A stretch of 56,178 bases of DNA from a virus (lineage: Duplodnaviria > Caudoviricetes): positions 1 to 56,178 of IMG/VR virus record IMGVR_UViG_3300043398_000200; one strand, given 5' to 3'. Shown here piece after piece: positions 4,615 through 42,380 of this stretch (positions within the stretch are counted from its first letter, which is position 1; each line of letters opens with the position of its first letter). The position numbers and the translations under genes were made by a program. The notes beneath the pieces are model-generated. The model did not search any database. It was not told where the DNA came from and saw only the letters and a program-made list of their open reading frames with translations.

Positions 4615-4931
4615 GCACGACTCCAGAAGGCAAGGTCAAGGCGCAAGTGAAGAAGGTGCTGAACCATTACGGCTGCTACCACGAGTGGCCAGTGCCATAT
4701 GGCTACGGCAAGTCGGGGCTGGACTGCACGGGACTGCTCAATGGAGTGCCGTTCTACATCGAGACGAAGGCACCGGGGCAACATCTGACGGCACGACAGG
4801 AAGCAACCAGGGCTGATATCCAAGCTGCTGGCGGTACGGTATTCGTCATCGGTGAGCGAATGATCAAGGGACGGCCGACCGGATTGAAGGACCTCGTGGA
4901 GTTTCTGGAATGCATCCGCCAGCTGCCATAA
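4611..4931 (+). CDS. VRR-NUC domain nuclease (Holliday junction resolvase-like)
   Basis: TPEGKVK..GYGKSGLD...IETKAPG..LTARQ..AAGG signature. Confidence 0.88.
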   Translation: MSTTPEGKVKAQVKKVLNHYGCYHEWPVPYGYGKSGLDCTGLLNGVPFYIETKAPGQHLTARQEATRADIQAAGGTVFVIGERMIKGRPTGLKDLVEFLECIRQLP

Positions 4932-11479: not shown

Positions 11480-11663
11480 ACCTGGCGTTGCTGCCACCGC
11501 TGTCCAGCGGGCGCTTGTGGTCCACGTCCTTGCCGTCGCCCTTGTGCGCGAGGCCAGCCTTGATCATGGCCGCCCGTGCACGGTTGCGTGCCATGCGGTG
11601 GCGCACCTGCTCAGGGCTGTTTTCGTACTCGGTGGCCCGTGTGTAATCCCGTGGTTTATTCAT
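11409..11663 (-). CDS. Small HNH endonuclease-like protein (84 aa)
   Basis: DGKDVDHKRPLDSGGSNARSNLRV...NR; starts at MNKPRDY, overlapping the end of the giant gene. Confidence 0.8.
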   Translation of the reverse strand: MNKPRDYTRATEYENSPEQVRHRMARNRARAAMIKAGLAHKGDGKDVDHKRPLDSGGSNARSNLRVRSVAANRGYRRDSKNHPI

Positions 11664-14600: not shown

Positions 14601-17600
14601 ATTCGCGGTTGATCGCCTTGCCGCCAGGGCGGGCCTCAGTACCCTGCTTGACGGCAGAGATGTTGGCGTCACGCTCGGATGCGGCGACATGATAGTCACT
14701 CAGTCCACTGCTTCCTTCGTCGGTGTCGTAGAACGCCCTGTGGTACTGGTCGGCAATCTGCTCCTGCGACATTGCCGACAACAACATGCGGTCGCCAACA
14801 TCACCAAGGTTCAGTTTCTTGTCACGGGCGCGCTTATAGATGTCGTTGGTAACACGGTTGGACCGCAACAAGCGGTCCATTGCGGCACCAACGTGTTCCC
14901 GTATAGCGTTGTCGGGCACGTTCTCCAGCGCCCACTTCATGCCGTTGGTAGCTTCTGACCGCTCACCAGTCAGGAGCGACTCGCTCAGCTGCATGATGGC
15001 ATCCAGGGCGTTGTCGGCCTGGTATCCATCCAGATGCAGGGCACGCCTGACAAACTTGACAAACTTACTCCAACCGGACTCCTGCATATCAATCTGCACG
15101 CCACGCAGGAAGTCCTGAAACTCGGGGTTAGAGAACGCCTCGGCAACAAACTCAGCCTCGACATTGGTCTTGGCCGTCAAACCGTAATGCTTGCTATAGT
15201 CCATGCCCTGCTTCGTTGCAGCTGTACGAACCATATCTACAAGGCTGCGCAGTTGTGCACGAAGCGCACCGTTAGCCTCAAGCTGTCCAACCGTGGCAGC
15301 GTGAACTGTCTCATGCGTGACGGCATGAATGAATGCCGCCATCGGATCAATGCCCTTCTCTCGGGCGGCATTCAGGAGCGCCCGGTTGAGCTTGATGGTG
15401 CGGTTGCCGTTTGCATCGACTGCAAACTGGCCCGTACGGCCCCCACGTCCTATACGGTCATCCCACGACAGATGCACATCATCGAGGTTCAGCTTACCCA
15501 GCTGGTCAAGCAGCTGCCGCTGCAGTCCTGACTTGACGTAGGTGCTGAACAGCCTGACCACATCCCCGGCACTGATCTTGTTGTTGGTTTCGAGGTTATC
15601 CGCGAGTGCCTGAGCAGCTTCGGTGAGCGACTTTACGAAAGCATACGGGTTAAGTGGAGCATCAGGGGCCTTCTTGATGCGCTTGGCCAGCTGGGCATTG
15701 ATGGCGGCTTCGCGGACCACCTGGGTCTTTTTGTCGGTCACCAGCCGGGCTTCACGCGCAAGCTCGATCTCCGTAGCCGGCCGACGGGCCGACACGACAT
15801 TACGCTCAGCCAGGAACATTTCATTCAGCCGTGCATCGTCCAGCTGCCCCGTTGGAGTGGTAGGGACGATCAGCATGCCGTTCTCATCAAAGCGAAATCC
15901 GAAAGCCTTGAACAACTTGACGAACGGCTCGACAACCTTTGTCTTGTAGTTAGCCCCACGCTCACTGTTTACAGCCGCAGGACTCAATGCTGCACGCAGC
16001 ATCTGCAGGTCCTGCAAAGTCAGCGGCTCGATCCATCGACGTTCCAGTTTGTCGGAGCCACCCTGCCTGGCAATGAACCCGGAAATCTTCGTGATGACTG
16101 GCGCAATGGCAGCCTCGTACATCGGGTTGCCCTTCATTGCTTCATGGAGCACGCCCCCCAACTCAAACCTACCGGCAAGGCGTTTCAGGTTGATGGCGTT
16201 CTGCACCAACCGCCCTTTTGCGGTATGTGCAAACTGCAGTACAACAGGCTCCATACGAGCAGCGGCCTGTGCTTGTGCAAGCGACTCGGCACGCATGAGC
16301 TTCGACAGAGCATAAACAATGCCGTCAGGAGTCTTGCGGTCGGTGATGTACTTGACGGAGGCATTGTACTTGTCAGCCTCCTTGAGGACGTTGAAAGATG
16401 CACCGTGCATCTGCGAAAGTATCTTGCCGTAGGCAAGCAGCACCTTCAGGTATGCATCGGCCAGGGCCACTCGTGTGCGCTTGGCGGCGCTGTCGGCGGC
16501 TTTCATCTCGTCGCGGATGAACCTGACTGATGCCTCGCCACTCTCAGTCAGCAGCTTCACCGACTGGTCTACTTCCTCATACGTACGCTTTACACGCGCT
16601 GCATGCTCCGCACGTTTTGCGTCCCCGCCCTCACGTACCTTGCGCGGGACGTTGAGGTCAAACAGCTGCCGGACGCCAAGCACGGCGCTTTTCATCGTCC
16701 TGGCGTTACCCTCACGATCTTTGCGCTGGCGGCGGCTGACCAGGGTCTCCGTAGGCTGTCCTTCCTTTTGCACGACGGCGGCATGCTCGGTAGCCCGGCC
16801 GGTGATGCCCTGGGAAGACACGCCCGAACCCATTTCACGGTTTGTTACGCGGTCGAACGCACGGCCGATCAGTTCCTTTTTCTCGGATGGGCGAGTGTGT
16901 GCAGCCATAAGCTCGCGCGCACTACGTCCCGCCGGCGACTCGATGCCTGTCGCTCCAGCAGCGATGCGTTCCTGCATCGGCCTGTCACTGGCAACCGCCG
17001 ACGCATTGACCCTGGCAGTCAGCTTGACATCAGTTGGCCGCTCTACTTCCTCTTTCTCCTTGCTCTTTTCAGCGGCGGCCATCACATCCACTGCGTTCAG
17101 GAACATGTGCTCGAACTCGACAGAATCTTCTGGCGGTATTTCGCGCGTCTTGGCTGCCTCGACCAGTTCTGCGTGTGCGTACGGGTTAGCCAGATCGCCA
17201 TGCCCGATCGTGAACGCGTTATCTTCTTCCTCATGTGACTGCGGGGCAGGGGATATTCCACGAAACCCTTTCGGGTTCACCTTATGGCCGACAGCCATAA
17301 TGCGCTCGGCTGCCGTAGTCGGCTTCGTGGAGGCCAGATGGACCCCCAGCTGCCGGGAGATCATACGTGCAGCTTTCTCGTCCTTATTCTCGATTGCTGT
17401 TTTCAGAAGTTCAAACAGCTTCGAGTAACGGTCGGCCTGTGCCACCTTGCTGAACGTGTACGAGCCAGGTGGCAGGAACCCACCAACCTCGCCCACCTTC
17501 TCCAGCGTGCGGGTATCGGTGGCTACCCGCCCTAGTCTCTGCAGAACTTCGTCGGGGGTCTTAACGTCGCGCGTGGCACTCAGTGCAAGGTCGCGCGCAT

Positions 17601-20376
17601 TGGCCCGGTCCCGCAATGTCTGCTCGATGGTTGTGCGAGTGCGACGCTGAAGCGCGGGAATATTGCCCGCCTGCTTCTCCTGCGCGATGAGTTCGTTGCG
17701 CCGCTGGATGGACTGCTCAGCAGTCATCACATGGGTAGTGCGGTCCGGGAACTCGCGGTCCCACGCCGATGCACGGCGCAGCGCGTCCAGGTTGGTGGCA
17801 ACCAATGCAGAACGCGTTACAGCGCCATTCTTGTCACGCTGCTCGACTGCAATGTTGGCCCCAGCAGGCTTACCAGTACCGGAACCGGTGACTGCGCCGA
17901 GGATCTCCTGCATCGAGTGGCCACCGGCCTTCATGCCGATCACTTCGTCGGCCACCTGGCGGTTCTTGGCAATCAGCGTGCCGCCCTTGTCATCGAAGTT
18001 GGCCAGCGGGACACCCACGCCACGAAGCTCATCGAAGCGACCTGTTTCCCGCAGGTGCTGAATATTCGCCGCCGACAGGTACACACCTTCGCGCATGTTG
18101 TCGGGGTTAGCCAGATCACGCATCTGTGCATCGAGATACAGGAATGGCTCGGCTGATGGCTCATCATCCATCTCGCCGGGGCGCTGGGTCAACGAGGCGG
18201 ACTGGCTCGTAACCGGGTCAACACGAGCGTACAGCCCTTCCGACAGCTGCCCTGAATCGTACAGGGCCGCCGCGGCCTGGTTGGCTTCCTCGGACGTAGC
18301 AAACACCTGCTGCTGAAGCACGTCACCGTTGCCACCGAAAACACTCAACTGAAAGCCCTGCTTCAATACGCCAGGTGCGGTGGGTGGCGCACTCTGTGAA
18401 GGCAGTGGAGCAGTGCCTGGGCCGAGCGGGGCCGCCGGCGCTGGATTGAACATGTCCAGCTGGTTCTCATCGGCAGCAGTGCCAAGGTACGTGCCTGGGG
18501 CACCGGACTCGTTGCCGCGGAAACCCTCGGGCTGCGACAGGTCCGGGGCCTGCGGTTCCGGTATCGGAGCCACATAGTCGGGGCCACGCCCCCGCACAAT
18601 ATCCGTTCGCCCCAGCCCTCGCTGGCGGTAGCGGCCGCCCTGGCGGATGTCAGCCCCCTGCGTCAGCGGGAGTTCCTGCTGCGTGTTACGAACGTAGGTG
18701 CTTGGCAGTGAGCGGGCGAACCGCTCCTGATCCTCATCGAACTGCGGCAGCATGGATTCCTGCTGCACGGGGTACAGCCCCTGCCCAGGGGCAAAGTTCT
18801 GCGCAAGCCCACGCCGAGGGCCAGGTTGGCGCAGCTGCTCCTGCAGGGTGTTGTACCCAGCCACTTCCTCCTGTGCGGTGCTGGAAGGCTGATCGAACAG
18901 GTCCCCCATCATGCCGTCGCGTCGAATGTTCCCTGCTACCTCACCCCCAGCAACAATCGCCTGCTGAATGTCCAAAGGAACAGGGCCAAGATCGAGCGCC
19001 CGCTGCCTTGGGGCACGTAGACCGATGTCCGGCGCAATGGGGTACATTGACCCTTCACGGCGATGCGCCAGCAACGCAACAGCACTGTCTTCCGTCGGGT
19101 CGCGCAGCGGGTCAAAGTTTGATCCAAACTCACCCGTAGAATCGTAGCCCGCGGGCTGCCCCGTGTACCCTCCAGGCGGCGGCTCCTGCTGCTTGAACAC
19201 ATCATCGAACGATGCAGGACCAGAAGGCGGCGGGGGTGTTTCTTCTCCTGCTCCCGGCGTGGCGTTGGGGGCGATTGGGACACGCTGGCCAGGACCCACC
19301 AGGCCCGTAGTCACACCACCCAACAAGCCACCAACGACTGCACCAGCCGTTGACTGCTCGGCCACGCCCTGGAACAAGGGGCGGCTATTGTCGTAGACCT
19401 TGGCAGCGAAGTTCTGTGCGGCCTGCTCGTTGCCCGACTGCAGTGCTTCCTGTCCGGCCTCAATGCCGCCACCCGCCACCGCCAGTGCCATGCGACCGCT
19501 GGCGGACTCGAATACGGGCTTCAAGTAGCGCCCCGCCATCGCACCGATGGCACCGGTGATCAGGCCACCCACCAACGGCGCATAGCCCTGTGCCTCAGTG
19601 ATCAGCGTCTGCCGTGCCGTGGTGTCATCCGCACCCTGCGCGATCAGGTCCCGATACCGTTGTGAGCCGGCCTGCAGTTCTTCCGGCTTGGCCTGCTCAA
19701 CTTCGTGCGCGACGTTGGACGCAATCTGCCCAACTGACAGGATGCCTTCGGATGCACCGAGGTACTTGATGGCGTTGGCCGCCATCGCCGCACCCTGCGC
19801 CCCCTTGATGCCGGCAGCAGCCTTCAACCAGATTGCACCGGGGAGTATCGTAACCAGGGTTGACGGTGCGTTCTGCGCGAGCGCGAGGCCGAGCGTGGCC
19901 ATCGTCTCTGTGATGCCACCACGCCACACACTGTTCTGCGGATCGAGTGACAGGAACTGCCGTGCGGCACGCTCCTGCGATTCGGGCGACATGCTGGTGT
20001 ACCAGTTGTCTGCAAACTGCTCTGTTGACTGACGAGCACTGGTCAGTCCTTCCGTGACTGCATTATCGCTTCCCAGCAGCTGTCTGGAGCCATACTCCAA
20101 TGCACCGACGCCCATAGCGCCGACCTGGCCAACGCCCGACATGAATGCCTTGCCATAATCAGCCAGGCCAGGCTCTGCAGGCGCGGGTCCAGCCGGCTGC
20201 AGCGAGCGCAGGCGTGAAAGCAGGTCAGATCCCGGAGGCTGCCCAGGCGTCGGAATAGCCGAGCGCGCACGCACAGCAATCTTTGCAAGATGCTGCTTGG
20301 TGTTCTCCGGTATGTCGGAGTCCGGCCCCAGGTCCGGCATCGGTGCATACGGGAAGATGGCGCTGTAGTTGCTCAC
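11656..20376 (-). CDS. Giant internal virion/ejection protein (2906 aa), PLxRFG-type, with HExxH motif
   Basis: GPYAPLFREGDY (PLxRFG-like), HAVTHETVHAAT, C-terminal FQFMKYPQGM region; last large gene of the structural operon. Confidence 0.8.
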   Translation of the reverse strand: MSNYSAIFPYAPMPDLGPDSDIPENTKQHLAKIAVRARSAIPTPGQPPGSDLLSRLRSLQPAGPAPAEPGLADYGKAFMSGVGQVGAMGVGALEYGSRQLLGSDNAVTEGLTSARQSTEQFADNWYTSMSPESQERAARQFLSLDPQNSVWRGGITETMATLGLALAQNAPSTLVTILPGAIWLKAAAGIKGAQGAAMAANAIKYLGASEGILSVGQIASNVAHEVEQAKPEELQAGSQRYRDLIAQGADDTTARQTLITEAQGYAPLVGGLITGAIGAMAGRYLKPVFESASGRMALAVAGGGIEAGQEALQSGNEQAAQNFAAKVYDNSRPLFQGVAEQSTAGAVVGGLLGGVTTGLVGPGQRVPIAPNATPGAGEETPPPPSGPASFDDVFKQQEPPPGGYTGQPAGYDSTGEFGSNFDPLRDPTEDSAVALLAHRREGSMYPIAPDIGLRAPRQRALDLGPVPLDIQQAIVAGGEVAGNIRRDGMMGDLFDQPSSTAQEEVAGYNTLQEQLRQPGPRRGLAQNFAPGQGLYPVQQESMLPQFDEDQERFARSLPSTYVRNTQQELPLTQGADIRQGGRYRQRGLGRTDIVRGRGPDYVAPIPEPQAPDLSQPEGFRGNESGAPGTYLGTAADENQLDMFNPAPAAPLGPGTAPLPSQSAPPTAPGVLKQGFQLSVFGGNGDVLQQQVFATSEEANQAAAALYDSGQLSEGLYARVDPVTSQSASLTQRPGEMDDEPSAEPFLYLDAQMRDLANPDNMREGVYLSAANIQHLRETGRFDELRGVGVPLANFDDKGGTLIAKNRQVADEVIGMKAGGHSMQEILGAVTGSGTGKPAGANIAVEQRDKNGAVTRSALVATNLDALRRASAWDREFPDRTTHVMTAEQSIQRRNELIAQEKQAGNIPALQRRTRTTIEQTLRDRANARDLALSATRDVKTPDEVLQRLGRVATDTRTLEKVGEVGGFLPPGSYTFSKVAQADRYSKLFELLKTAIENKDEKAARMISRQLGVHLASTKPTTAAERIMAVGHKVNPKGFRGISPAPQSHEEEDNAFTIGHGDLANPYAHAELVEAAKTREIPPEDSVEFEHMFLNAVDVMAAAEKSKEKEEVERPTDVKLTARVNASAVASDRPMQERIAAGATGIESPAGRSARELMAAHTRPSEKKELIGRAFDRVTNREMGSGVSSQGITGRATEHAAVVQKEGQPTETLVSRRQRKDREGNARTMKSAVLGVRQLFDLNVPRKVREGGDAKRAEHAARVKRTYEEVDQSVKLLTESGEASVRFIRDEMKAADSAAKRTRVALADAYLKVLLAYGKILSQMHGASFNVLKEADKYNASVKYITDRKTPDGIVYALSKLMRAESLAQAQAAARMEPVVLQFAHTAKGRLVQNAINLKRLAGRFELGGVLHEAMKGNPMYEAAIAPVITKISGFIARQGGSDKLERRWIEPLTLQDLQMLRAALSPAAVNSERGANYKTKVVEPFVKLFKAFGFRFDENGMLIVPTTPTGQLDDARLNEMFLAERNVVSARRPATEIELAREARLVTDKKTQVVREAAINAQLAKRIKKAPDAPLNPYAFVKSLTEAAQALADNLETNNKISAGDVVRLFSTYVKSGLQRQLLDQLGKLNLDDVHLSWDDRIGRGGRTGQFAVDANGNRTIKLNRALLNAAREKGIDPMAAFIHAVTHETVHAATVGQLEANGALRAQLRSLVDMVRTAATKQGMDYSKHYGLTAKTNVEAEFVAEAFSNPEFQDFLRGVQIDMQESGWSKFVKFVRRALHLDGYQADNALDAIMQLSESLLTGERSEATNGMKWALENVPDNAIREHVGAAMDRLLRSNRVTNDIYKRARDKKLNLGDVGDRMLLSAMSQEQIADQYHRAFYDTDEGSSGLSDYHVAASERDANISAVKQGTEARPGGKAINREWTQLAEKYDDQAIEFARIEAESSLERVFPDRDLDAPGNEHVKSDEMKKVHAELRARLQAIDPEWTRLYGRLRDMYGRTIQQLASLRALNALRPALTGGDTVVMTKKQFNAKYDEGSVQRLGLDTVSGIQKEFGKQQTFGTREEAEQWAANEQADNPSMQFTEISKDKKTGQFEATVSVLSDDMASTVAAIARIPKMQQGPYAPLFREGDYVVHANLILDHKTFQDKKEARTWANTEAAKEVTRSARVERNPDGSWTGSVVQFEVQYRKTRAEAEAVRQVLVQEYGETGTSDVELKNEFLNGPTLLKSDDRLSRVMDKLTGNPAAQNAIKELYMEQLADASFRQHQRRRENILGAEADNAQQAMARYTEGAAYHIAQLRYGHVMSDALYRMDQFIKKVAEHKIKSPLDSVKLGHIYRELKARDTLAATPSKVIPLIQKGTQLSQLFMLLSPAYWFRNSMQVPMVMLPWLAARHGTAKAVGALLRAQKLIAHPLLTQTGRSWLGAKAAISASTGEDAFEVLEQIEGWIRQRSPPAQAAEYMKLLDKLKQQGALEITTATELRNMSEGKGNSQAQRLLDATRIMSHLTEVNNRVVSAIAAYDLAREPGPRQMTQEAAAAYARSAVSKTHMNYSASNAPRLFGRGGPLGRASPLVFQFMKYPQGMYALLIDNFYRARRGASQQERREGAKTIAGLLMSHAVVGGMTGVMLQPIKWALGAAAVLLGGGADQKEPYTWTNAMSGDIYDKWVHDAANAALGTDLGQVLARGLPTALGQDYATSLSLGSLYMLDLKADTTESLLGSLVKGLGGPTLNLGMRFHSGMKYMMEGQPWRGTEMLLPKMFSDVSKALRYSQTGIVDTRGAMIESPENLHPIDLFWQSLGVQPARIEQLYEKRGAINTQKAYEADQRAALLRRWALADMEDRQEVRAKIDAFNSKRPIHRITASALIRARQAMRKTEASNLRYTANLRPSERQLAEDFEGYNDE

Positions 20377-32655: not shown

Positions 32656-32852
32656 GCGAAGGGGCGCAACCAACGCTGCTTGCGGGCCTTCACGTCGTCA
32701 GCGTCGTTGTCATCCACGACCGGTGCCGACTTGCCGTGATGCCCCGCCATGCGGTGCTCCACGGCTGCATGCCCCACCTGCACGTCTGCCACTCCAGCTG
32801 GGTTGGACAGCTTGTGCGACTTGACGACCTTGTTCCCCTTGCTGAGCATCAC
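32652..32852 (-). CDS. Hypothetical small protein
   Basis: Coupled to both neighbours. Confidence 0.5.
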   Translation of the reverse strand: MMLSKGNKVVKSHKLSNPAGVADVQVGHAAVEHRMAGHHGKSAPVVDDNDADDVKARKQRWLRPFA

Positions 32853-33073
32853 GCACCCGGTGCCGTGACATCGGCCGAGCGGCCGCCGTGGCCACCACTC
32901 ACGCCGCTGGTGCGGTTGGGCGGGATGTTGGTGTTGCCCTTGGTCGAGCCGAGAAACTTGCCACTGGGGCTGCCGCCGTGGCTCTCACCGCTGCCGCCGC
33001 CACCCTGGGACACGTTGGTGTTGCGGTCGGTGTTGCCCTTGGTTGGGCCGAGAAACTTGCCTGAAATACCCAT
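32849..33073 (-). CDS. Small Gly/Ser-rich protein with duplicated SGKFLGxTKGNT motif
   Basis: AGGAG RBS; 33-bp repeat at 32930-32962 and 33029-33061 (2 mismatches). Confidence 0.65.
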   Translation of the reverse strand: MGISGKFLGPTKGNTDRNTNVSQGGGGSGESHGGSPSGKFLGSTKGNTNIPPNRTSGVSGGHGGRSADVTAPGA

Positions 33074-33115
33074 GTTCGAACTCCTGTTTGGAATGCTCCA
33101 CACACGGTGGGGGTG

Positions 33116-34214: not shown

Positions 34215-35975
34215 TCAGGCTCCGGTGTATCCCTGCAGGTTAATCAGCACGCCGGTAGACGCAGTTGTCGAAGACTCCTTGATATACAGCGCCGTGTTGG
34301 CGGTGGACTTCAGCGGGACGGGGAAAACAATGGTGGCTGCACCCAGTGGGCCGACGAAGCCACGGAACAGCGCCGTGCCGCCCGAACCGTCCGTAACAAG
34401 AAACTCCGTACCCGTCGTCGGGTGAGAGTTGAACACCTGCATGCTGGTAAGGTAGTTACGGATACCGGCACCAGCCGCGCCCTTGGCTGAGACTTCCGTC
34501 GTAGTGACGAGGCCAGCAGCAGGAGCCGCATAATTCCAGCTGTTGGCTTCCGATTCATAGGGCTGCGTGATCTGTTTACGGTTCAGCGTCATGCGCGCTG
34601 CGCCAGCATCTCCCTCGTCCACCGAGTCAGTCGAAGTATCGTCGGCAAGATACCCGACTACTGCAATCTTGCTGGTGGCTGGGGTGAATGCCGCATCATC
34701 AACCTGCACCCAGGTCCCGTTCTCCTGGACGACAAACGTGCCAGCATTGGTAACGGCGTGCGACGCGACAGTGACCGTGCCAGTGATGGCTACCTGACCA
34801 GTCGAGTCGTTGGCAATGGTGACACGCTGGACACCCGTACCTGACGCACCGTTGCCCATCGACGGAGCGACACCGTTGATCTGTGCAACATTGACCGCGC
34901 TGTTGGCAGTGATGGACACTGTACCGCTGACTGGCTGGGTGACGGCGGAACCGTCCACCTTTACAGCCGTCATTGATGCAATACCCTGGATGGTGATCAC
35001 ATCCGAGGATGCCGTGCCGGCCACACCGAGGGCGGGCTGCTTGGCAGCGGTGGACGCACCAGAGGGCAGGTCGGGCGTCGTCAGCAGCTTGTTGGTCAGG
35101 GCTGGCTGGTCCGTAGCCAGGACGACACGCAGTGTGCCAGCTGACTTGGTGCCTGAGTTGGTATCAACCGTAGTACCGTTGAGCTTGTCGATCTGTGCCG
35201 TGGTCCACAACCGACCAGCCGACATCTGCAGCATCGAGTAGTCAAGATCAGACCCCGCCGTGTCGGCCGGCGACGCACGCTGGACGGCCATCGCCGGGAC
35301 ACCCACGTCAGCGTCGGCGCTGGCCACATCCTCGGCCTTGGCAATGCTGGTCGCACCCGAAGCAATGGTGGCCTGCACGGCGAACGTGCCGGCGTTGGTG
35401 ACGGCGTGAGAGGGGACCGAGGCCAGGGACACAGGCTGTGTCACCGCCGACCCATCGACCTTCAGGGCGGTCATGGAGGCCGTACCCTGAACGGTGATCA
35501 CATCGGCTGAAGGGGTCCCCGCCACTCCAAGCGCCGGCTGCTTTGCTGCGGTGGCTGCACCAGATGGAAGTGGCAGGGACGCCACGCTCACAGGCTGAGT
35601 GACGGCGGAGCCATCCACCAGCACCGCCGTCATCGAGGCGATACCCTGGATGGTGATCACGTCAGCTGAAGCAGTACCAGCCACCCCCAGGGCGGGCTGC
35701 TTGGCGGCCGTGGACGCGCCCGAAGGAAGGGGCAGGGACACCACGCTGACTGGGTGCGTGACGGCAGAGCCATCAACCTTCACAGCCGTCGCATTGGCCC
35801 CAGTATTGGCCAGCGTGACCTGGAGCGGCGCGGCGGAACTGATGTCCGTGGCAGAACCGTCGGCACCCTGCTGGATCTTGACGCGCTGGACTTTTACCCC
35901 GCCACCGATGTCGTCCGTGGAAAGAACGTCCCCACTGCCGACCGTTACGCCGTTCAAAATCGTATTGTCAGACAT
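34215..35975 (-). CDS. Repetitive fibre protein (586 aa) with beta-sandwich tip
   Basis: 53-aa repeats (VDGSAVTQPVS..LPSGASTAAKQPALGVAGT..DVITIQG); Ser/Thr/Ala-rich. Confidence 0.75.
   Translation of the reverse strand: MSDNTILNGVTVGSGDVLSTDDIGGGVKVQRVKIQQGADGSATDISSAAPLQVTLANTGANATAVKVDGSAVTHPVSVVSLPLPSGASTAAKQPALGVAGTASADVITIQGIASMTAVLVDGSAVTQPVSVASLPLPSGAATAAKQPALGVAGTPSADVITVQGTASMTALKVDGSAVTQPVSLASVPSHAVTNAGTFAVQATIASGATSIAKAEDVASADADVGVPAMAVQRASPADTAGSDLDYSMLQMSAGRLWTTAQIDKLNGTTVDTNSGTKSAGTLRVVLATDQPALTNKLLTTPDLPSGASTAAKQPALGVAGTASSDVITIQGIASMTAVKVDGSAVTQPVSGTVSITANSAVNVAQINGVAPSMGNGASGTGVQRVTIANDSTGQVAITGTVTVASHAVTNAGTFVVQENGTWVQVDDAAFTPATSKIAVVGYLADDTSTDSVDEGDAGAARMTLNRKQITQPYESEANSWNYAAPAAGLVTTTEVSAKGAAGAGIRNYLTSMQVFNSHPTTGTEFLVTDGSGGTALFRGFVGPLGAATIVFPVPLKSTANTALYIKESSTTASTGVLINLQGYTGA
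35430..35790 (-). repeat. 159-bp period coding tandem repeat, with a further copy near 34930-35070
   Basis: Homologous positions at 35760, 35601 and 35442. Confidence 0.85.
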
Positions 35976-35991
35976 TTCAGATCCCCTATGC

Positions 35992-36330
35992 TCAGGCGTT
36001 CAGCCAGGCCAGCTCGTTGTTCCAGTAGGTGGTGTCTTCTTCCACACCACCGTCAACATCCGTGACATAGATGAACCCGCACCCCGCACCAAGGAAAAAA
36101 TCCATCACGTCGTGAAGGTTCGCCGCACTGACGCCGTTCACCAGGGCAGAGAACTTGCTGTTGGCGAAGTTGCTCATCCAGGCAGGCAACGTGGGGTATG
36201 TAGGTGAGCCATGCCCGTTGGGGATGTACTGCTCGTACATGACCATGATGTCCACGACATTGGCTATCTGCTGGTGATCGGACGCGGTGTCATACGTCCC
36301 GCCCTGATGGATTGCTACGATGGCTGCCAT
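35992..36330 (-). CDS. C-terminal half of a spherulin-4/GH135-like domain
   Basis: DIMVMYE, PAWM...KFSALV, GCGFIYVTD, YWNNEL match the spherulin-4 C-terminal pattern. Confidence 0.65.
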   Translation of the reverse strand: MAAIVAIHQGGTYDTASDHQQIANVVDIMVMYEQYIPNGHGSPTYPTLPAWMSNFANSKFSALVNGVSAANLHDVMDFFLGAGCGFIYVTDVDGGVEEDTTYWNNELAWLNA

Positions 36331-36334
36331 ATGC

Positions 36335-39300
36335 TTACCCGTTGAATACTTTCACGACTACATGGCCACGCATTGAGCCAATCAGAATTGACTGTCCTGC
36401 GGGGACCAGGGTGCCAGGACCGACAATGCGAACATCAATCGGATAGGTGACATGCCGCGCCGGATTGCCCTCCGGGTTCCACCGTGCAAAGCCATAGTCA
36501 AACTCACGCATGTAGGTCCCATCCGCCTGCGGCGAGGAATGCTGCGACTCGGTACGCGCCTTACCGAGGTAATGCCGGCCTGCGTCCACGTTCGGATATG
36601 TATAGGGGATGCCAGTAGCGCGGTTAACTGAGAACTCCGGGTGCCACACGAAATCATCGGGCTTGTAGTTCTCGAAACCTCCAATGGGGCCAGCATAGCC
36701 TTCCTGGTACCCATAACCAGGGCGTGACATGTGGACACAGCCACCACGCTTACTGGCGAAGCACAGATATGCCGCGAACCAGTACATGCTGCCTTCCCCA
36801 GGGGGGCTATACTGGCCAGTGTAACCGTTCACGTCCATGAGCGCCTGGCGCCCATCAGCCATGATCGTGTTGAACGAGGCCAGCATGTACGGTCCGTGCG
36901 TCTGGTCGTTGAAGCACTTGAATGAACTCGGCGCACCTATCCAGTTGCCGCCGCGACAGGAAATGTCGATGCGCTCCGCGTAGGTTCCATCAGAAGCACC
37001 AGACAGGCGCGGCGGGTTGGTGTACCAGTCAATAGTTCCGAAGTTGCCAGTCCAGCTGGTGCCATTGTTCCACGCCATCTTCCCGGTGATGGCGCGAGTC
37101 TGTGCAAGCAGATCCCTACAGCCGCTCGACAGCGTGTCATTCACCTTGACGTTGATGTCCCCCTGAGCCACATCCGCAGGCCAGCCACCATGATGGTCGG
37201 CATACTCCTGCTGGCTATACCCACTGCGCAGATTCGCCTGCAGGTCGTCATAGAACGTGGCGTCGTACACGTCCATGAAGTTAACGCCCATATTGGAGTT
37301 AGGGGCCTTGCCAGTGGAGTTGAGATCCAGTACCCCCTTCTGCCACTTTGCAATGAACGTGCTGGCGGTTTCTCCAACCCCCGCGCCGCTGGTCCCAGTC
37401 GTTCCGCCTGGAAATGGCGGGTATACATAGACAGTATAAGCTGGATTGCCATTCTCCAACTCAAGGACATAGTTAGAACCGTTGGTCGTCGCAAGCCAGT
37501 GGTTATTACTGAGAACCCTCAACACATCCGTCTCGAACTGGTTGCCGCCAGCCGTGTTGTACCGGGGGAAGCTGAAGTCCCAAGTGTAGTGGGCAAGCTT
37601 CAGTGAGGGGTTCACTGCCTTCACTGCAAGGAAGTCCGCGTGAATATCATTGTTGCTGAAGTCCGTCGCAAAACTCGACACAACTGCCATGTCGATGTGC
37701 TTCAGGAACTCGAAGAAGGTGCCGTTGTTAGGCCCCAACTGCCAGTGGTTCCGACCGTAGGTGCCTTCATACAGACCGATGGCCATTGCGCCGATGCGCG
37801 GGAATAACTCAGTGGTGTCACCACTGCCGGAAACCCTCAACGCAACCAGACCGTCACCTTCGGGTAGCGTGTAGCTCCCACCAATGGCCCCGTTATTGAT
37901 GGCCGCATCACCAATGAGCGCACTGTTGTGTGTCAACCGCTGGAAATCGGTGAGGTCGATTACCTTCGCCCCATTCCCCCTCGGGTTCAGCCACGCACGT
38001 CCGCTCACAAAGTCACGGTGCAGCACTCCATTACCAAGTCGTGAAGCAGTCTGGAACCCTTCCAGCGCACTACCAAGCCATCCAGCGCGGTTGATCGCAC
38101 CACCGTACATCTCATCGTAAAACTGGTTGGCGGGTGGGCCAGCACTTGTCGTCGTGCCAAAATACCCAGGCCCCATCAACACAACACACTGCGCATAACG
38201 TGCTTCACGCAGGTTTCCAGATGTCGGCAAGTCGCGGGCATCGACTTTCAATGGGCGATCCGCGGCGGTCAGCGAAGCGTCTACCGCCCACTTGTAGCGC
38301 GCCAGGAAAGTCAGCGTACCGTCAGTCGCCTCCGACCCGTTTGGCCCAAGGCCGTTTTCGAGCATGGCGAAGTCAGCCATGTTCATCAGGTGTGTCCAGT
38401 TATTCGGGTCCGGCGCACCGTTGTTCCAGGTCGCGTACCCGTTGCAGCCCCAGCCCTTGTTGGGGTTGATCGTCCGGCCGTAAGTAAACCAATCGGACTC
38501 TCCTGCCCTGAAGTCGGCCTGAGTCCACGCCCCTCCAGTCGGGTTGTAGTCATAAGTCTGACTGTAGTAAGTACCAGGGTTGGTGTACGAGAACACGTTG
38601 TCGCAGAGAAAGTAATCTATCGACGTTGCTTTCGAGGCGGCGGGGTCTGCGCCGCCGCCGGTGATGTAGCAACGATTGGTTGCAAAGGCCGCGTACTGGT
38701 ACGGCCACAGCCCACCATACTGCCCTACGAAATGCGTCGGGTTGATCAGCCAAAAGTTTGGAATATCCCACCCGGATATTACATGGGTACCACTGCGCCC
38801 CACCTGCCACAGGTCCCAGTTGGCCGCGACGACAGCGTTCTTCCAGTCCTGAACATAGGCCCCACCATCGGCCCGCCGCTCGTTGAAGTTCCCGTACTGA
38901 ACGATCTTGGTACCAACGAGAGATCGAGACTTGATATCGTCGTAAGCCTGCTGGCGCGTCATCCCCTCGCCGTTGGGGTATGCAGCAGGGTAGTTCCCTC
39001 CAATCTCAATGATGTGAAACTTCGCCGCAATCGCCCGCTGCGTGGCGTCCGGGACCTGGTTTGTCCCAGTAAAGCCGCCAGCGATGCGCGGATATGGGTG
39101 GTTGAGGCCGGGGAAAGTGGTCGAGGTCGGCGGCGGCGTAGGCGACGGAGTCGTGCCACCCTGCTTGGAGCGCACGTAGGCCGTCATCTCGGTCCAGTGC
39201 TGCACCCAGGTCAGGTCCTCTGGCATGTTGGGGCGGCCCTGGCCGCCCTGACCAAAGAAAATGCCGTCGATGTTTGGAAACGCGTTGTACCACGCATCGA

Positions 39301-41917
39301 TTCGCGTCTTCAGCTGCGCGCGGGTCAGCATCTGATATGGGATTGTCCCGGTCACATCCAGTGACGTGACGTGCCCAAGGACCTTGATACCCCGTATATG
39401 GCACTGGTCAATATGTGCCTGCAGCTGCGGGTTGGGGTTGGAGTAGCTGTCGTAGTAGTAGTTGTCCGCATCGAAAATGCAAAACACCACACTTCCAGCT
39501 GGCATCTGGTAGATCTGCGCCCACTGCGCAGCATTGTTCGTGGGGAAGCGGAAGATGATCTTGTTGGACGGCTGTGAGATAGGTGGGTCGAGGGTCACAC
39601 CTGTCACTGCTGCACTCTGCGCAGACTCGTTCACCGGGTCGGCCTGGTCAAATGCCGACACCCGATAACTGTGCACTTCACCCGCCGCCATGCCTGTCAC
39701 ATCGTAAGTGGTACTGGTTGTCGTGGCGAGGTAAGAACCATCCTTGAACACCTTGTATCCACCCACCCCAGTGCCTGCATCCGACGAAGCACTCCACTGC
39801 AGTCGAGTCGCAGACTGGCTCAGGGCCTGTGCAGACAGGTTGGTGGGTACCGTGGGGGCCGTCAGGTCGGCAGTCTCACCACCCTGAATGATTTCCAGGG
39901 CACACAGCAGGCCATTATCCGAAGTACCAATGAGCCGCAGGTGCAGGCTGCCAGTACTGATGTGGTGGGTGTACGACTTCTTGAGTGTCGCATTGCTGCC
40001 GACCACCCCGCCAATATCAACACCCGTCTCCTTGACGGTGCCGTTCATCTCAACATTAAACACGCGATGCCCAGCAGTCCCAAACACCGGGTCGGCAAAG
40101 TACAGATTGATGGTGTAGGTGTCGTCAGCAGGCACCGCTGCATCGACAACCAGCGTAGGGATGTCCCATCGACTGGTCTGATAGAGCGGCTGCCTGGCGG
40201 CGTCCGAGCCGGTAATCGTTGCACCACTGTCATTGACGTAGGATGTGGGGGAGAGAACCCCCGTATCCGCCAACCAATTCAAACCGCCTGGGTCAGTGTA
40301 AGTCGGGCCACCAATGTTCACCCTGAAGGTGAACGGATCGCCGCTACTGGTCAAGGCCGGCAGGGTGAACGTACGGACGGCACTTTCATCCGACGAAAAT
40401 CCTGCGTGGTCGGTAGCTACGGTCGTGATGCTGAAGTTCTCTCGCTCCGCCCCGACATCGTAGTAGGACACGTCGGTGGCCAGTGTGAGCGCATACCCAG
40501 TGTAGGTACCCTGACCGTTGTAGGCCATGCGACAGGCCAGCACGTCCGTACTGAAAGGAAGCTCGGCCGTGGCACACGACACCCATGTCGGAGAACTTGG
40601 ATTGGTGGCGTAAAAGACCTCGAACCGGGTCAATGCCACGCGCACGATCTTGAGCGCACAGGCTACAGCAACGGACAAATCCGCAAGCAGCTGCGGGGTA
40701 CTGTTGTTGGTCAGGCGGGCATAGACCCGCAGCTTATTGATGCTGCCTGCGGTCGTCGTATGCAGGGCTGCAATGAAGGCCGCACCACGATCCGCCGAAT
40801 TACGGACCTCAATGCCAATAGCCCCATTGTTGGCGTCGATGCTGGACGTAACCGCAGTGACGTTGATCTGCTGCGAAAAATCTCCGCGGACAAAGCGGCC
40901 GCGCAAGTACACAGTATCCTGCGTGCCGAAATGACTCCCGCCAGTGGTCATGGCGATTGTCGAACCACTGTCCGACCCCTGCGCGCCGCCGAGGTTGTAG
41001 TCTGCCTCCGCAGTCAGTACCACCGGCTCGGGCATATCCCCAAGAGCCGCGCCGAAATTGCGGAAGGCGTAGGAACTGGTCCCCGACACCGCTTCTCCAC
41101 CACCCGGAGTAGCATCTGCGACGCGCGGCTGCTGCACGAGCCAGCCAAGGGGGCTGCCCCAGGTAGCGACCTTTATCAGCCCTGTAGGCTGCGGTGGCGC
41201 ATGCTGATCGACCGTACCGGTCCCAGGAACGGTCACAGCAATAGCGGCGGTCCTGTCAGAGCGCAATCCTACAGCGTCAACAGCATATGCCTGATAGAGG
41301 ACGGCGTGGTCCGTAGTCTGCACTGCCCCCGGATCGTCAAGCGGAAACCCAGGCGTCGAAAGCTCAGCAAGAACAGACGAGTCGCTGGGATTGATCCGCT
41401 CAACGACATAACCAACCACCGAAACATTGTCGATGGACCCACGCGACGTGATGTGCGGAACCCCTCCAACGATGGCGACAGCAAAATCAGCCGGCTTGGT
41501 TGGTTTCTCCGTGTCTGTAGGAACAGGTGGAGTGTCGTCTGCACCTGGGCCATACAGGTAGGTGTAGTAATTAGCAATGCTTGCGGGAATGAACCCGCAG
41601 GCCACAGTAACCTGCGCATCATCTGCCGGCGTCATGTATCGCGCCAGGCGCGTGCGACGCGAATAGTTGTCTGCGATTGCACGAATGCTGGCCAGCCCCA
41701 GTGTCACTGTGCTGCCAATGGCCTCACCATCCGGCCCAAAAATCAGCCGCATCTGCTCGGTCACATCTGAAAGGCCAAGCTTTGCATCCTGCGCACGCAG
41801 GTAATCCCGATCCTCGTCGGTCAGAAACCGCTTCAGTCGGCCACGGGCGGCCAACCCAAGCATGTACGTACGAAGTTCCTCGTACGCTACAACGATTGGA
41901 TCATCTGCGTGTGCCAT
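36335..41917 (-). CDS. Giant multidomain carbohydrate-binding/hydrolase virion protein (~1860 aa): FN3, lectin, malectin, FN3, spherulin-4 N-half, two GHL15-like glycoside hydrolase modules
   Basis: Start at MAHADD by TGATG coupling; malectin FRVNIGG..LYQTSRW..LYFAD..RVFNV; FN3 APTVPTNL..LQWSAS..GYKVF; GIKVLGHV..IDGIFF; two R(D/E)F..G....NP.GN ends. Confidence 0.8.
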   Translation of the reverse strand: MAHADDPIVVAYEELRTYMLGLAARGRLKRFLTDEDRDYLRAQDAKLGLSDVTEQMRLIFGPDGEAIGSTVTLGLASIRAIADNYSRRTRLARYMTPADDAQVTVACGFIPASIANYYTYLYGPGADDTPPVPTDTEKPTKPADFAVAIVGGVPHITSRGSIDNVSVVGYVVERINPSDSSVLAELSTPGFPLDDPGAVQTTDHAVLYQAYAVDAVGLRSDRTAAIAVTVPGTGTVDQHAPPQPTGLIKVATWGSPLGWLVQQPRVADATPGGGEAVSGTSSYAFRNFGAALGDMPEPVVLTAEADYNLGGAQGSDSGSTIAMTTGGSHFGTQDTVYLRGRFVRGDFSQQINVTAVTSSIDANNGAIGIEVRNSADRGAAFIAALHTTTAGSINKLRVYARLTNNSTPQLLADLSVAVACALKIVRVALTRFEVFYATNPSSPTWVSCATAELPFSTDVLACRMAYNGQGTYTGYALTLATDVSYYDVGAERENFSITTVATDHAGFSSDESAVRTFTLPALTSSGDPFTFRVNIGGPTYTDPGGLNWLADTGVLSPTSYVNDSGATITGSDAARQPLYQTSRWDIPTLVVDAAVPADDTYTINLYFADPVFGTAGHRVFNVEMNGTVKETGVDIGGVVGSNATLKKSYTHHISTGSLHLRLIGTSDNGLLCALEIIQGGETADLTAPTVPTNLSAQALSQSATRLQWSASSDAGTGVGGYKVFKDGSYLATTTSTTYDVTGMAAGEVHSYRVSAFDQADPVNESAQSAAVTGVTLDPPISQPSNKIIFRFPTNNAAQWAQIYQMPAGSVVFCIFDADNYYYDSYSNPNPQLQAHIDQCHIRGIKVLGHVTSLDVTGTIPYQMLTRAQLKTRIDAWYNAFPNIDGIFFGQGGQGRPNMPEDLTWVQHWTEMTAYVRSKQGGTTPSPTPPPTSTTFPGLNHPYPRIAGGFTGTNQVPDATQRAIAAKFHIIEIGGNYPAAYPNGEGMTRQQAYDDIKSRSLVGTKIVQYGNFNERRADGGAYVQDWKNAVVAANWDLWQVGRSGTHVISGWDIPNFWLINPTHFVGQYGGLWPYQYAAFATNRCYITGGGADPAASKATSIDYFLCDNVFSYTNPGTYYSQTYDYNPTGGAWTQADFRAGESDWFTYGRTINPNKGWGCNGYATWNNGAPDPNNWTHLMNMADFAMLENGLGPNGSEATDGTLTFLARYKWAVDASLTAADRPLKVDARDLPTSGNLREARYAQCVVLMGPGYFGTTTSAGPPANQFYDEMYGGAINRAGWLGSALEGFQTASRLGNGVLHRDFVSGRAWLNPRGNGAKVIDLTDFQRLTHNSALIGDAAINNGAIGGSYTLPEGDGLVALRVSGSGDTTELFPRIGAMAIGLYEGTYGRNHWQLGPNNGTFFEFLKHIDMAVVSSFATDFSNNDIHADFLAVKAVNPSLKLAHYTWDFSFPRYNTAGGNQFETDVLRVLSNNHWLATTNGSNYVLELENGNPAYTVYVYPPFPGGTTGTSGAGVGETASTFIAKWQKGVLDLNSTGKAPNSNMGVNFMDVYDATFYDDLQANLRSGYSQQEYADHHGGWPADVAQGDINVKVNDTLSSGCRDLLAQTRAITGKMAWNNGTSWTGNFGTIDWYTNPPRLSGASDGTYAERIDISCRGGNWIGAPSSFKCFNDQTHGPYMLASFNTIMADGRQALMDVNGYTGQYSPPGEGSMYWFAAYLCFASKRGGCVHMSRPGYGYQEGYAGPIGGFENYKPDDFVWHPEFSVNRATGIPYTYPNVDAGRHYLGKARTESQHSSPQADGTYMREFDYGFARWNPEGNPARHVTYPIDVRIVGPGTLVPAGQSILIGSMRGHVVVKVFNG

Positions 41918-42207
41918 CAGAACAACCCGATCATGTTGACTGCCGTCGTGACCGAACTCCACACCCGCCGCACACGGCAGGGGACGAAGCCGCCGGTGGG
42001 GATGATGAAGGTCACAGGCTCGGCGTCGTCATTGCCCGCAGGAGTCACCTTGACGTTCCCCCCCGTGCCGACGAACACAAACTGATCCTTGTTCTCACCG
42101 TTGTTGTTGGTGAGATCCACCGAGTCGCTCGGGCTGATCGCCTTTGCGCACATGGGGAACCCCGTGACGAAGAAGGGTCCTGGGGTCTCGTTTGCTTCTA
42201 TCGCCAT
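41917..42207 (-). CDS. Head-spike base protein (RcGTA Rcc01079-like)
   Basis: AISPSDSVDL..VFVGTGGNVKV..VTF..PTGGFVPCRVRRVWSSVTTA..IGL pattern. Confidence 0.7.
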   Translation of the reverse strand: MAIEANETPGPFFVTGFPMCAKAISPSDSVDLTNNNGENKDQFVFVGTGGNVKVTPAGNDDAEPVTFIIPTGGFVPCRVRRVWSSVTTAVNMIGLF

Positions 42208-42212
42208 GCGCC

Positions 42213-42380
42213 CTACTCCGTTTTCCTGGCGAAGCGCACCGATGCCGCCCGCGCCCTCAAGATGTTTTCCTGGACCTGCCTGACACGCGTCGGCTCATCG
42301 ATTGCCTTCTGCGCCGCGTCTACCGCCTCACGCTGGTCAATGGCCTGTCGCCGCTGACTGACTGTTGACTCAAATTTCAT
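42213..42380 (-). CDS. Small hypothetical protein (55 aa, not in ORF track)
   Basis: MKFESTVSQRRQAIDQRE...; ATGA overlap with the upstream stop; fills the gap. Confidence 0.6.
   Translation of the reverse strand: MKFESTVSQRRQAIDQREAVDAAQKAIDEPTRVRQVQENILRARAASVRFARKTE

Follow-up and report, generated by a model that had tools for sequence, protein, structure and literature searches.

What becomes of a protein domain when 2.83 kb of other coding sequence separates its two halves? The question is raised by the minus strand of IMG/VR virus record IMGVR_UViG_3300043398_000200, a sequence of 56,178 bp (estimated completeness 93%) that was analyzed over its full length (hereafter, the window), and whose split fibre gene comes from a freshwater phage. 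A giant open reading frame (ORF) in this window contains the first half of a (β/α)8 barrel domain with kinship to Spherulin-4, continues into two other modules, and stops; an ORF of 112 amino acids (aa) directly behind it contains the second half. By comparison with intact relatives, residues 798–933 of the giant ORF complement the 112-aa ORF, each being one half of the same domain. We lean, with slightly better than even confidence, toward a lineage-specific, non-destructive insertion that would have left a barrel of two chains, completed in trans.

The features of the locus are as follows (positions are those of the window; P numbers denote proteins and L numbers denote DNA loci used for comparison).

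36335–41962, minus strand: giant modular virion fibre ORF, 1875 aa from GTG
39911–40330, minus strand: Malectin carbohydrate-binding domain, giant ORF residues 545–684 (PF11721, E 1.8e-17)
39638–39847, minus strand: fn3 domain, giant ORF residues 706–775 (Pfam 20.9 bits, under the 25-bit cut-off; PHROG match)
39164–39571, minus strand: N-terminal half-barrel (β1–α4), residues 798–933, 27–44% identical to the first half of intact homologues
39248–39268, minus strand: β4 motif DGIFFGQ in the sequence, with Gly-Gln for the canonical Asp-Glu
39162–39166, minus strand: left AAGCA (codons AAG CA-) at the junction
39101–39163, minus strand: Gly/Thr/Pro linker opening the insert, residues 934–954, from the translation
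37832–39100, minus strand: insert module B, residues 955–1377, by similarity to the C-terminus of P0017
36338–37831, minus strand: insert module C, residues 1378–1875, by similarity to modules of P0019–P0023
36335–36337, minus strand: TAA stop of the giant ORF in the sequence, its last two bases inside the right AAGCA
36332–36336, minus strand: right AAGCA at the junction
35992–36330, minus strand: 112-aa ORF, C-terminal half-barrel (β5–α8), by homology and co-folding
36232–36234, minus strand: Glu33 of the 112-aa ORF (YE motif), invariant in the family

The original prediction for this locus, made from the letters alone, had described a Spherulin-4 barrel of glycoside hydrolase (GH) family 135 split in two by a hydrolase insert; all its coordinates and reading frames proved correct on rechecking (ORF ends, both AAGCA copies, and DGIFFGQ at 39268–39248). 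The gene caller's version of the giant ORF (P0001, 1860 aa) starts, by arithmetic, at the in-frame ATG 41917. Between the TAA of the giant ORF and the ATG of the 112-aa ORF (36330) lie 4 nt (GCAT), and the 112-aa ORF reads in the +1 frame with respect to the giant ORF. This frame is open only from 36351; the 112-aa ORF cannot start further upstream because a TGA (36354–36352) closes its frame.

Two halves of one domain

The claim that the 112-aa ORF is the missing part of the domain begun in the giant ORF was borne out by intact homologues. In nine of nine full-length homologues (P0002, P0004–P0010, and P0013, where the barrel is present as two tandem copies that were both considered), the phmmer match to the N-terminal half (N-half) ends next to the start of the match to the C-terminal half (C-half), e.g., at positions 639/643 in P0004, 635/638 in P0008, 1055/1057 in P0006, and 180/186 in P0010. 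P0002 (444 aa), which was retrieved by searching giant-ORF residues 798–934 for longer proteins, carries a signal peptide and a Malectin domain, together with a single uninterrupted barrel domain spanning both halves: its residues 181–323 align with giant-ORF residues 785–934 (33% identity), and residues 358–444 align with residues 26–111 of the 112-aa ORF (47% identity, E 3e-26). An exhaustive HMMER search of 1.84 billion representatives with the 112-aa ORF returned 14 proteins at E ≤0.001, including itself. At the DNA level, both halves are adjacent and in the same frame in 5 of 7 related loci (L002, L004–L007), whereas L008 is truncated by a contig end and L003 is too divergent for judgement; some of these loci and P entries may stand for identical proteins, so that the protein and locus counts overlap. 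L002 is an unrelated 60.9-kb phage, in which the intact form is part of a 1295-aa ORF; after this ORF comes a homologue of the 233-aa gene of the window.

The spacing across the junction was also compared. The distance between the conserved aromatic residue in α4 and the H-x-G motif that follows β5 is 16 residues in 5 of 8 pattern-matched copies, and the N-terminal piece of the window (..AYVRSK) together with the ATG-frame piece (KHMAAIVAIHQG from 36336) has, by count, the same 16-residue length when the shared Lys is counted once. Because the summed junction length equals the modal spacing, apparently no ancestral residues were lost or duplicated beyond the 5-bp repeat. On these comparisons, the two-piece state is derived and the intact barrel is ancestral.

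Close relatives of the locus were sought in several collections. A blastn search with 35900–42000 gave zero matches in the phage collection, the 112-aa ORF alone found none among viral contigs, an alignment-based search of genome contigs for barrel relatives found none, and a metagenome scan found distant, intact relatives only. A further protein, P0011 (1164 aa), shows 19 weak repeated matches to residues ~27–73 of the 112-aa ORF and is apparently composed of repeats of a barrel fragment or of a similar-looking sequence.

Family and fold of the barrel

The Spherulin-4/GH135 label holds through the Pfam matches of intact homologues and through the fold of one of them, and not through any direct Pfam match of the window's halves. 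The Spherulin4 model PF12138 (gathering score 30.2 bits) gave zero matches at E ≤10 to the giant ORF, the N-half, and the 112-aa ORF, and none in a six-frame search of the window; P0002 was likewise without a match. Five of the 11 homologues scanned are above the cut-off (P0009, 33.8 bits; P0010, 44.8 bits; P0014, 125.5 bits; P0015, 161.8 bits; P0016, 64.1 bits), and P0008 is just under it (27.8 bits). Because only intact homologues pass PF12138, the kinship of the window halves with Spherulin-4/GH135 is transitive. Searches of the locus proteins against PHROGs and NCBIfam returned fn3/Malectin-type matches only, and sequence and profile searches of the PDB, including those with P0015 and with family alignments, returned nothing credible.

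The fold was assessed in an AlphaFold2 (AF2) model of P0010, the simplest intact member, which was built from a 9-row alignment (predicted local distance difference test [pLDDT] 61.5; predicted template modelling score 0.64) and in which β/α elements alternate. Using VIA-align, the top match was Sph3 (5c5g; Z 16.1, root-mean-square deviation 3.8 Å, 230/254 residues, 18% identity), with the next family at Z 15.2 and thus a gap to other GH barrels of <1 Z unit. Foldseek placed PelA (GH166) and Sph3 (GH135) on top (5c5g, E 3.9e-7). The closest similarity to Sph3 therefore applies to the model of a homologue and not to the window protein. Judged by these family and fold matches, the domain is a divergent, rare subfamily related, transitively and by fold, to Spherulin-4/GH135. 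The window protein itself is not filed as a GH135 member because the direct hidden Markov model test fails and its β4 acidic pair is Gly-Gln.

The substituted motif DGIFFGQ, previously pointed out as a departure from the usual acidic residues, is present as described; its Gly occurs in 12/12 subfamily domain copies (the canonical P0014 has DE), so that it is a trait of the whole subfamily and not caused by the split. In Sph3, the catalytic pair is an Asp and Glu222 on the C-terminal face of the barrel, according to the available text of PMC12054363. Glu33 of the 112-aa ORF, in the YE motif, is invariant (12/12 aligned rows) and would be the equivalent of the β6 catalytic Glu222 of Sph3. The two catalytic positions would then lie on different halves, and binding or catalysis would need both chains.

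Position of the cut and the junction repeat

In P0010, the N-half ends at 180 and the C-half begins at 186, and the model has a helix at 167–182 and a strand at 186–188. Four strands precede the cut (52–54, 73–74 [short], 107–113, and 144–148), and four follow it (186–188, 209–213, 256–261, and 287–291). On this model, the cut maps to the loop joining α4 to β5, at the barrel face away from the active site, and divides the barrel into halves of 4 + 4 units. The α4/β5 boundary is a place where fragmentation is tolerated in laboratory work, as described in the available texts of PMC7008512, PMC8250049, and PMC4591997.

The minus strand reads AAGCA at both junctions (39166–39162 and 36336–36332), exactly 2830 bp apart and in matching frames, as had been claimed, and removing the 2830 bp keeps the frame and restores the modal spacing (by count). 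For one fixed register, the composition of this window gives P = 0.0014 for matching over ≥5 nt, and with a few tens of registers allowed the probability is ~0.01–0.06; as a trace of insertion, the repeat is suggestive and not decisive alone. GGGT lies 3' of the left AAGCA (39157–39166) and 5' of the right one (36332–36340), giving the arrangement AAGCA-GGGT ... GGGT-AAGCA; this pair of only 4 nt may be chance or the trace of a circular or tandem donor junction. A longer duplication upstream of the right junction was considered and rejected: the residues there include Y and GK, but the DNA matches only TA plus AAGCA, and the likeness is put down to chance.

Origin of the insert

The insert comprises a Pro/Thr-type linker, modules B and C, and a stop. 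Module B is 41% identical to the last 439 residues (435–873) of P0017 (873 aa), both end at the same point, and P0017 has a poly-Gly linker at the place equivalent to the linker of the insert. Module C shares 32–49% identity with the C-terminal modules of P0019, P0021, P0022 (an uncultured Caudovirales phage protein, going by the name given at its source), and P0023, as well as with the N-terminal module of P0020, where the module C homologue comes first and a B-like module second. P0019 and P0021–P0023 end in ..G-L-x-x-V-K-[VA] plus 0–2 residues, and the giant ORF ends in ..RGHVVVKVFNG. Because modules B and C end at the native C-termini of their homologues, the insert is, as read from the alignments, the 3' end of another fibre-type gene, with the C-terminus and the stop of the donor (within a few codons). 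Residues 114–429 of P0019 are 24% identical to residues 238–543 of the giant ORF and lead directly into the module C homologue; by these similarities, P0019 is another combination of the same parts.

The description of the insert as a hydrolase stands as a lead from ESM Atlas proximity to GHL15 (PF14885), without a Pfam match. In the ESM Atlas, the features of both modules are nearest to GHL15 clusters (module B: 0.96, 209 shared; module C: 0.94, 193 shared), and P0020 has PF14885 listed as a precomputed annotation. Pfam gave no match to modules B and C, and hmmscan with PF14885 gave none to the modules and six homologues. The AF2 model of module C (pLDDT 39) was unusable, and modules B and C show weak mutual similarity (E 0.003 over 41 residues). 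No match to a nuclease or recombinase was found in the insert with Pfam, PHROG, and NCBIfam, and none to a Hint or endonuclease domain with Pfam (an RNA-family search was not made). Considered as a possible intein or intron, the insert has a stop codon of its own, and its homologues are ordinary C-terminal modules of proteins. The insert ends carry no terminal inverted repeats and no longer direct repeats, and there is no GC step (0.54–0.62 inside vs. 0.55–0.59 just outside).

Authenticity of the sequence

Contigs of sequencing runs X1–X4 were compared with the locus. In run X1, a 53.8-kb contig covers 33000–43000, and in run X2, a 6.7-kb contig from a separate assembly covers 35624–42282, each with 0 differences; both bridge both junctions at an even depth of ~20 and derive from one sample, possibly the source. 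Runs X3 and X4 are from two other studies and contain identical fragments that bridge no junction (X3: 36084–36276, 37102–37252, 37449–37599, 40378–40528, 40721–40905, and 41027–41177; X4: 37942–38194). Because identical fragments occur in three studies, this form of the phage is circulating. A joint that skips the insert (39162/36331), for which a search had been proposed, was absent from the contigs of the four runs, a result of little weight given that contigs drop rare variants; the stretches left uncovered in X3 and X4 likewise mean little.

Two minor observations concern the same runs. At 36615–36759, a 151-nt contig of run X3 has 10 differences, the 6 listed being separated by gaps of 6, 3, 3, 9, and 10 nt; from this spacing, it looks as if it came from a related strain whose module C has changed in a synonymous-type manner. 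The sole joint reported, at 33061 in X1 and X2 (33000–33061), goes back 62 bases with 37 other letters between and is a repeat-copy difference in a small ORF with ISGKFLG..TKGN repeats (32849–33103). This ORF is conserved beside the homologue of the 365-aa gene in L009.

Conservation and predicted assembly of the two halves

Both halves are conserved intact. Among the columns that are ≥75% conserved in the family, the 112-aa ORF retains 22/24 and the N-half 25/34. In a regression of C-half on N-half identity over 26 of 28 pairs of intact homologues (the two pairs with N-half identity ≥60% were left out), the residual standard deviation was 0.044, and the mean residual of the window against eight homologues was +0.022, i.e., no detectable extra divergence of the 112-aa ORF. 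In the co-folding check that had been suggested for the N-half and the 112-aa ORF, the two halves scored 0.90, 0.91, and 0.91, against 0.17 for the best control; the mark of this tool is reached by 58/80 solved complexes and 2/110 mismatched pairs. Across runs, ≥96% of contacts agree and the partner pLDDT is ≥90, with predicted contacts between residues 4–6 of the N-half and 85–88 of the C-half (β1:β8) and between residues 102–106 of the N-half and 4–7 of the C-half (β4:β5). The alignments used included intact homologues.

A sequence of events can be proposed in which the ancestral gene would have ended, as in intact relatives, in an unbroken Sph3/Spherulin-4-like (β/α)8 barrel after Malectin and fn3 domains. 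The ~2.83-kb 3' end of another phage fibre gene, with its linker, two C-terminal modules, and stop, would have entered the α4–β5 loop, with nothing ancestral lost at the insertion. The AAGCA flanks would fit a microhomology-mediated template switch, with departure from the ancestral gene and return to it at one and the same AAGCA; the alternative route may have been one illegitimate crossover involving a circular donor. In the present arrangement, the giant ORF has β1–α4, then two new modules and a stop, with β5–α8 on the 112-aa ORF, where ribosomes ending on the giant ORF would re-initiate. The 112-aa half-barrel would dock on the N-half through the β4:β5 and β8:β1 seams, and the restored two-chain barrel would present a sugar-binding face with residues from both chains. 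The cut at α4/β5, the absence of residue loss, and the well-placed ATG would each be expected of a barrel that had to stay functional and would otherwise be coincidental. The more specific proposal, a natural, genome-encoded heterodimeric triosephosphate isomerase (TIM) barrel in which a 112-aa (βα)4 unit made by translational coupling completes the half carried by an 1875-aa fibre, seems to us to fall just short of an even chance.

The first option of the original prediction, a microhomology-mediated insertion after which both halves were kept and reassemble in trans, fits best: it gained support for the insertion, for the exact complementarity of the halves (from intact homologues), and for their co-folding in silico, and reassembly in the cell would be a putative further step. 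Its further idea, that the split barrel serves as a docking joint, adds nothing, the 112-aa ORF being without cargo beyond the half-barrel.

Several points speak against a two-chain barrel. The split form was found in 0/9 full-length homologous proteins and 0/5 evaluable related loci, and P0001 and P0003 are single-member clusters; because the split is a singleton, purifying selection after it is unmeasurable, and a recent event would look alike. Shine-Dalgarno pairing of the 112-aa ORF is weak (−3.8 kcal/mol, compared with a random median of ~−3 and −5 to −8 kcal/mol for most genes of the window), and because of this its expression would depend on termination-reinitiation across the 4 nt. Co-folding indicates compatibility, not binding, and a pass is to be expected for the halves of one domain. 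The 4 + 4 reading is based on a medium-confidence homologue model in which β2 is a 2-residue DSSP element, and catalysis appears doubtful, the canonical β4 Asp being absent.

Some of these points would suit a recent relic, a rather unlikely but serious alternative: the same insertion would have killed the barrel, leaving the 112-aa ORF as an untranslated or functionless remnant, as yet undecayed, and the N-half as a spacer, with the new modules having taken over the function of the fibre. The split is unique to this record, its Shine-Dalgarno site is weak, the surrounding ~9-kb block is lineage-specific and lies in a region of recent turnover, and equal conservation of both halves is also predicted by a recent event. 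A relic, however, needs three independent coincidences, namely a cut that hits precisely the α4/β5 loop, on the face without catalytic residues, the loss of zero ancestral residues, and an ATG three codons from the junction and 4 nt past the stop, at a position where Met occurs in 0/8 homologue copies in the junction stretches compared. The circulation of the form, with identical phage fragments in three studies, also argues against a relic.

Other explanations

A +1 frameshift at GGG-UAA-G (36340–36334), which would produce a single chain with the modules nested inside the barrel, is very improbable. The 112-aa ORF is in the +1 frame, this frame is open from 36351, and slippage by +1 at the final sense codon would fuse the two ORFs; the classical setting for +1 frameshifting has a stop codon in the A site, as in prfB. 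However, the +1 relation is a 1-in-3 chance, no stimulatory Shine-Dalgarno element was seen by eye 5' of the site (a structure search was not made), and just ~6 residues would be left to connect β5 with the end of module C. To our knowledge, GGG-to-GGU re-pairing is not documented as an efficient shift site. Ribosomal hopping between the two AAG codons was considered and rejected: the gap of 2830 nt is far beyond the known case, T4 gene 60, where it is reportedly roughly 50 nt. An RNA-level skip, one of the three options first raised, found no support (Rfam and RNA-structure searches of the junctions were not made); the insert is an in-frame protein-coding stretch that closes with the native stop of the donors.

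We give hardly any credence to a switchable cassette, also among those options, in which excision between the AAGCA copies would regenerate the uninterrupted gene and yield two fibre versions. Removal of the 2830 bp (39166 to 36336) would indeed leave the frame and the modal junction spacing intact (by count), but the contigs lack the skipping joint, there is no recombinase and no inverted repeat at the insert ends, and 5 bp is far below the needs of homologous or site-specific systems. No close relative with either form, and in particular none with the uninterrupted gene, was found in the phage collection or in the contig and metagenome searches. An assembly or annotation artefact, i.e., a chimeric contig or an error-made stop in what is a single metagenome-derived sequence, can practically be set aside: the X1 and X2 contigs, although from the same sample, span both junctions with 0 differences at depth ~20, assemblers do not join at 5-bp overlaps, and a single base error cannot make a 2.8-kb in-frame insert.

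Comparison with known systems

The two-chain barrel resembles several known systems in part. The nearest natural one is nrdA of phage Aeh1: it is split by the insertion of mobE, its pieces were kept and assemble via new tails, and function was demonstrated, according to the available text of Crona et al. (2011; PMC3045599). As in that case, a phage gene is cut by inserted DNA here, the pieces are adjacent ORFs, and non-covalent reassembly without splicing is proposed. Unlike Aeh1 nrdA/mobE as described there, the insert is the in-frame 3' part of a structural gene and not a homing endonuclease, two modules have been added to the first piece, new tails for interaction are not evident, and assembly in trans is a structure-based prediction.

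Fragments of TIM barrels and half-barrels reassemble in the cases that the available texts of PMC7008512, PMC8250049, and PMC4591997 describe (TrpA fragments, HisF halves, and glycosidase half-barrels). The locus shares with these the cut between the fourth and fifth β/α units and the predicted association of the halves; it differs from the laboratory half-barrels, which were engineered or proteolytic, in being natural and genome-encoded, with one half in an 1875-aa virion protein. For split TIM barrels or half-barrels, a literature search found, among the papers listed, only engineered or proteolytic cases, which is not proof that natural ones are absent. With Sph3 (GH135, Aspergillus; 5c5g/5d6t, available text of PMC12054363), the subfamily shares the fold of P0010 and the Pfam match of homologues, and the conserved Glu of the YE motif would be a putative further common residue. 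In contrast to Sph3, the window halves miss the Pfam model, have Gly-Gln as the β4 pair, and stand in a Malectin/fn3 phage-fibre context.

Phage fibre genes exchange C-terminal receptor-binding or depolymerase modules, and such a swap normally replaces the old C-terminus. The present case is like this exchange in that the linker-bounded modules B and C are also seen as the final parts of phage proteins that are unrelated (P0017, P0019, and P0022), and unlike it in that the old domain is interrupted and fully retained on both sides.

If the two-chain barrel is real, it would parallel in nature the laboratory work on engineered half-barrels and fragment complementation that underlies the theory of (β/α)8 barrels from (βα)4 halves. 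It would also show, in a living system, the joining of half-barrels that has been proposed as a step in how this fold arose. The half-barrel seam would be a permissive site for grafting two glycan-active modules without losing the old domain, and phage fibres would gain receptor-active modules by interrupting, not replacing, a domain. If it is a relic, the locus would still record, with its two junctions in place, an illegitimate acquisition of modules that can be dated cleanly. For annotation, each half alone escapes Pfam, so that routine annotation misses split domains and the 112-aa ORF appears as a 'hypothetical protein'.

Genomic context

The fibre genes stand in an unusual place. In six phages whose portal is 64–74% identical, the portal is followed by a 365-aa gene and a 327-aa gene (67–84% identical across the six), which are read from position alone as scaffold and capsid genes. 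The gap from the portal to the 365-aa gene is 1.0–1.3 kb in these relatives vs. 10.2 kb in the window, where a block of ~9 kb (about 33.1–42.2 kb) contains the giant ORF, the 112-aa ORF, 586-aa and 233-aa genes, and a 130-aa Ig-like ORF. The block is absent from 6/6 close portal relatives, and its place is unusual for fibre genes. No match to the giant ORF, the 112-aa ORF, or the 586-aa and 233-aa genes was found in any of 22 portal-related loci, nor a giant-ORF homologue in two complete related genomes. Because it is absent from the portal relatives and from the two complete related genomes, the whole block is, on these comparisons, a lineage-specific acquisition. A recent event is plausible in such a region of active module turnover, which keeps the relic alive as an alternative to the two-chain barrel. 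On the side of the block that faces the 365-aa gene, the small ORFs have conserved counterparts in L009. A PHROGs search on eight neighbours of the L002 gene gave no match.

The 586-aa protein (34215–35975, minus strand) contains several ~40-residue repeats (..AAKQPALGVAGT.S.DVIT.QG.ASMTA..VDGSAVTQPVS), and its C-terminal 110 residues match L002 at 4789–5118. Many short X1 and X2 contigs with 80–90% identity pile up on 34500–35780, which points to copies that are repeated or microdiverse. A 2906-aa ORF on the same strand as the 327-aa gene lies downstream of it (11656–20376, minus strand).

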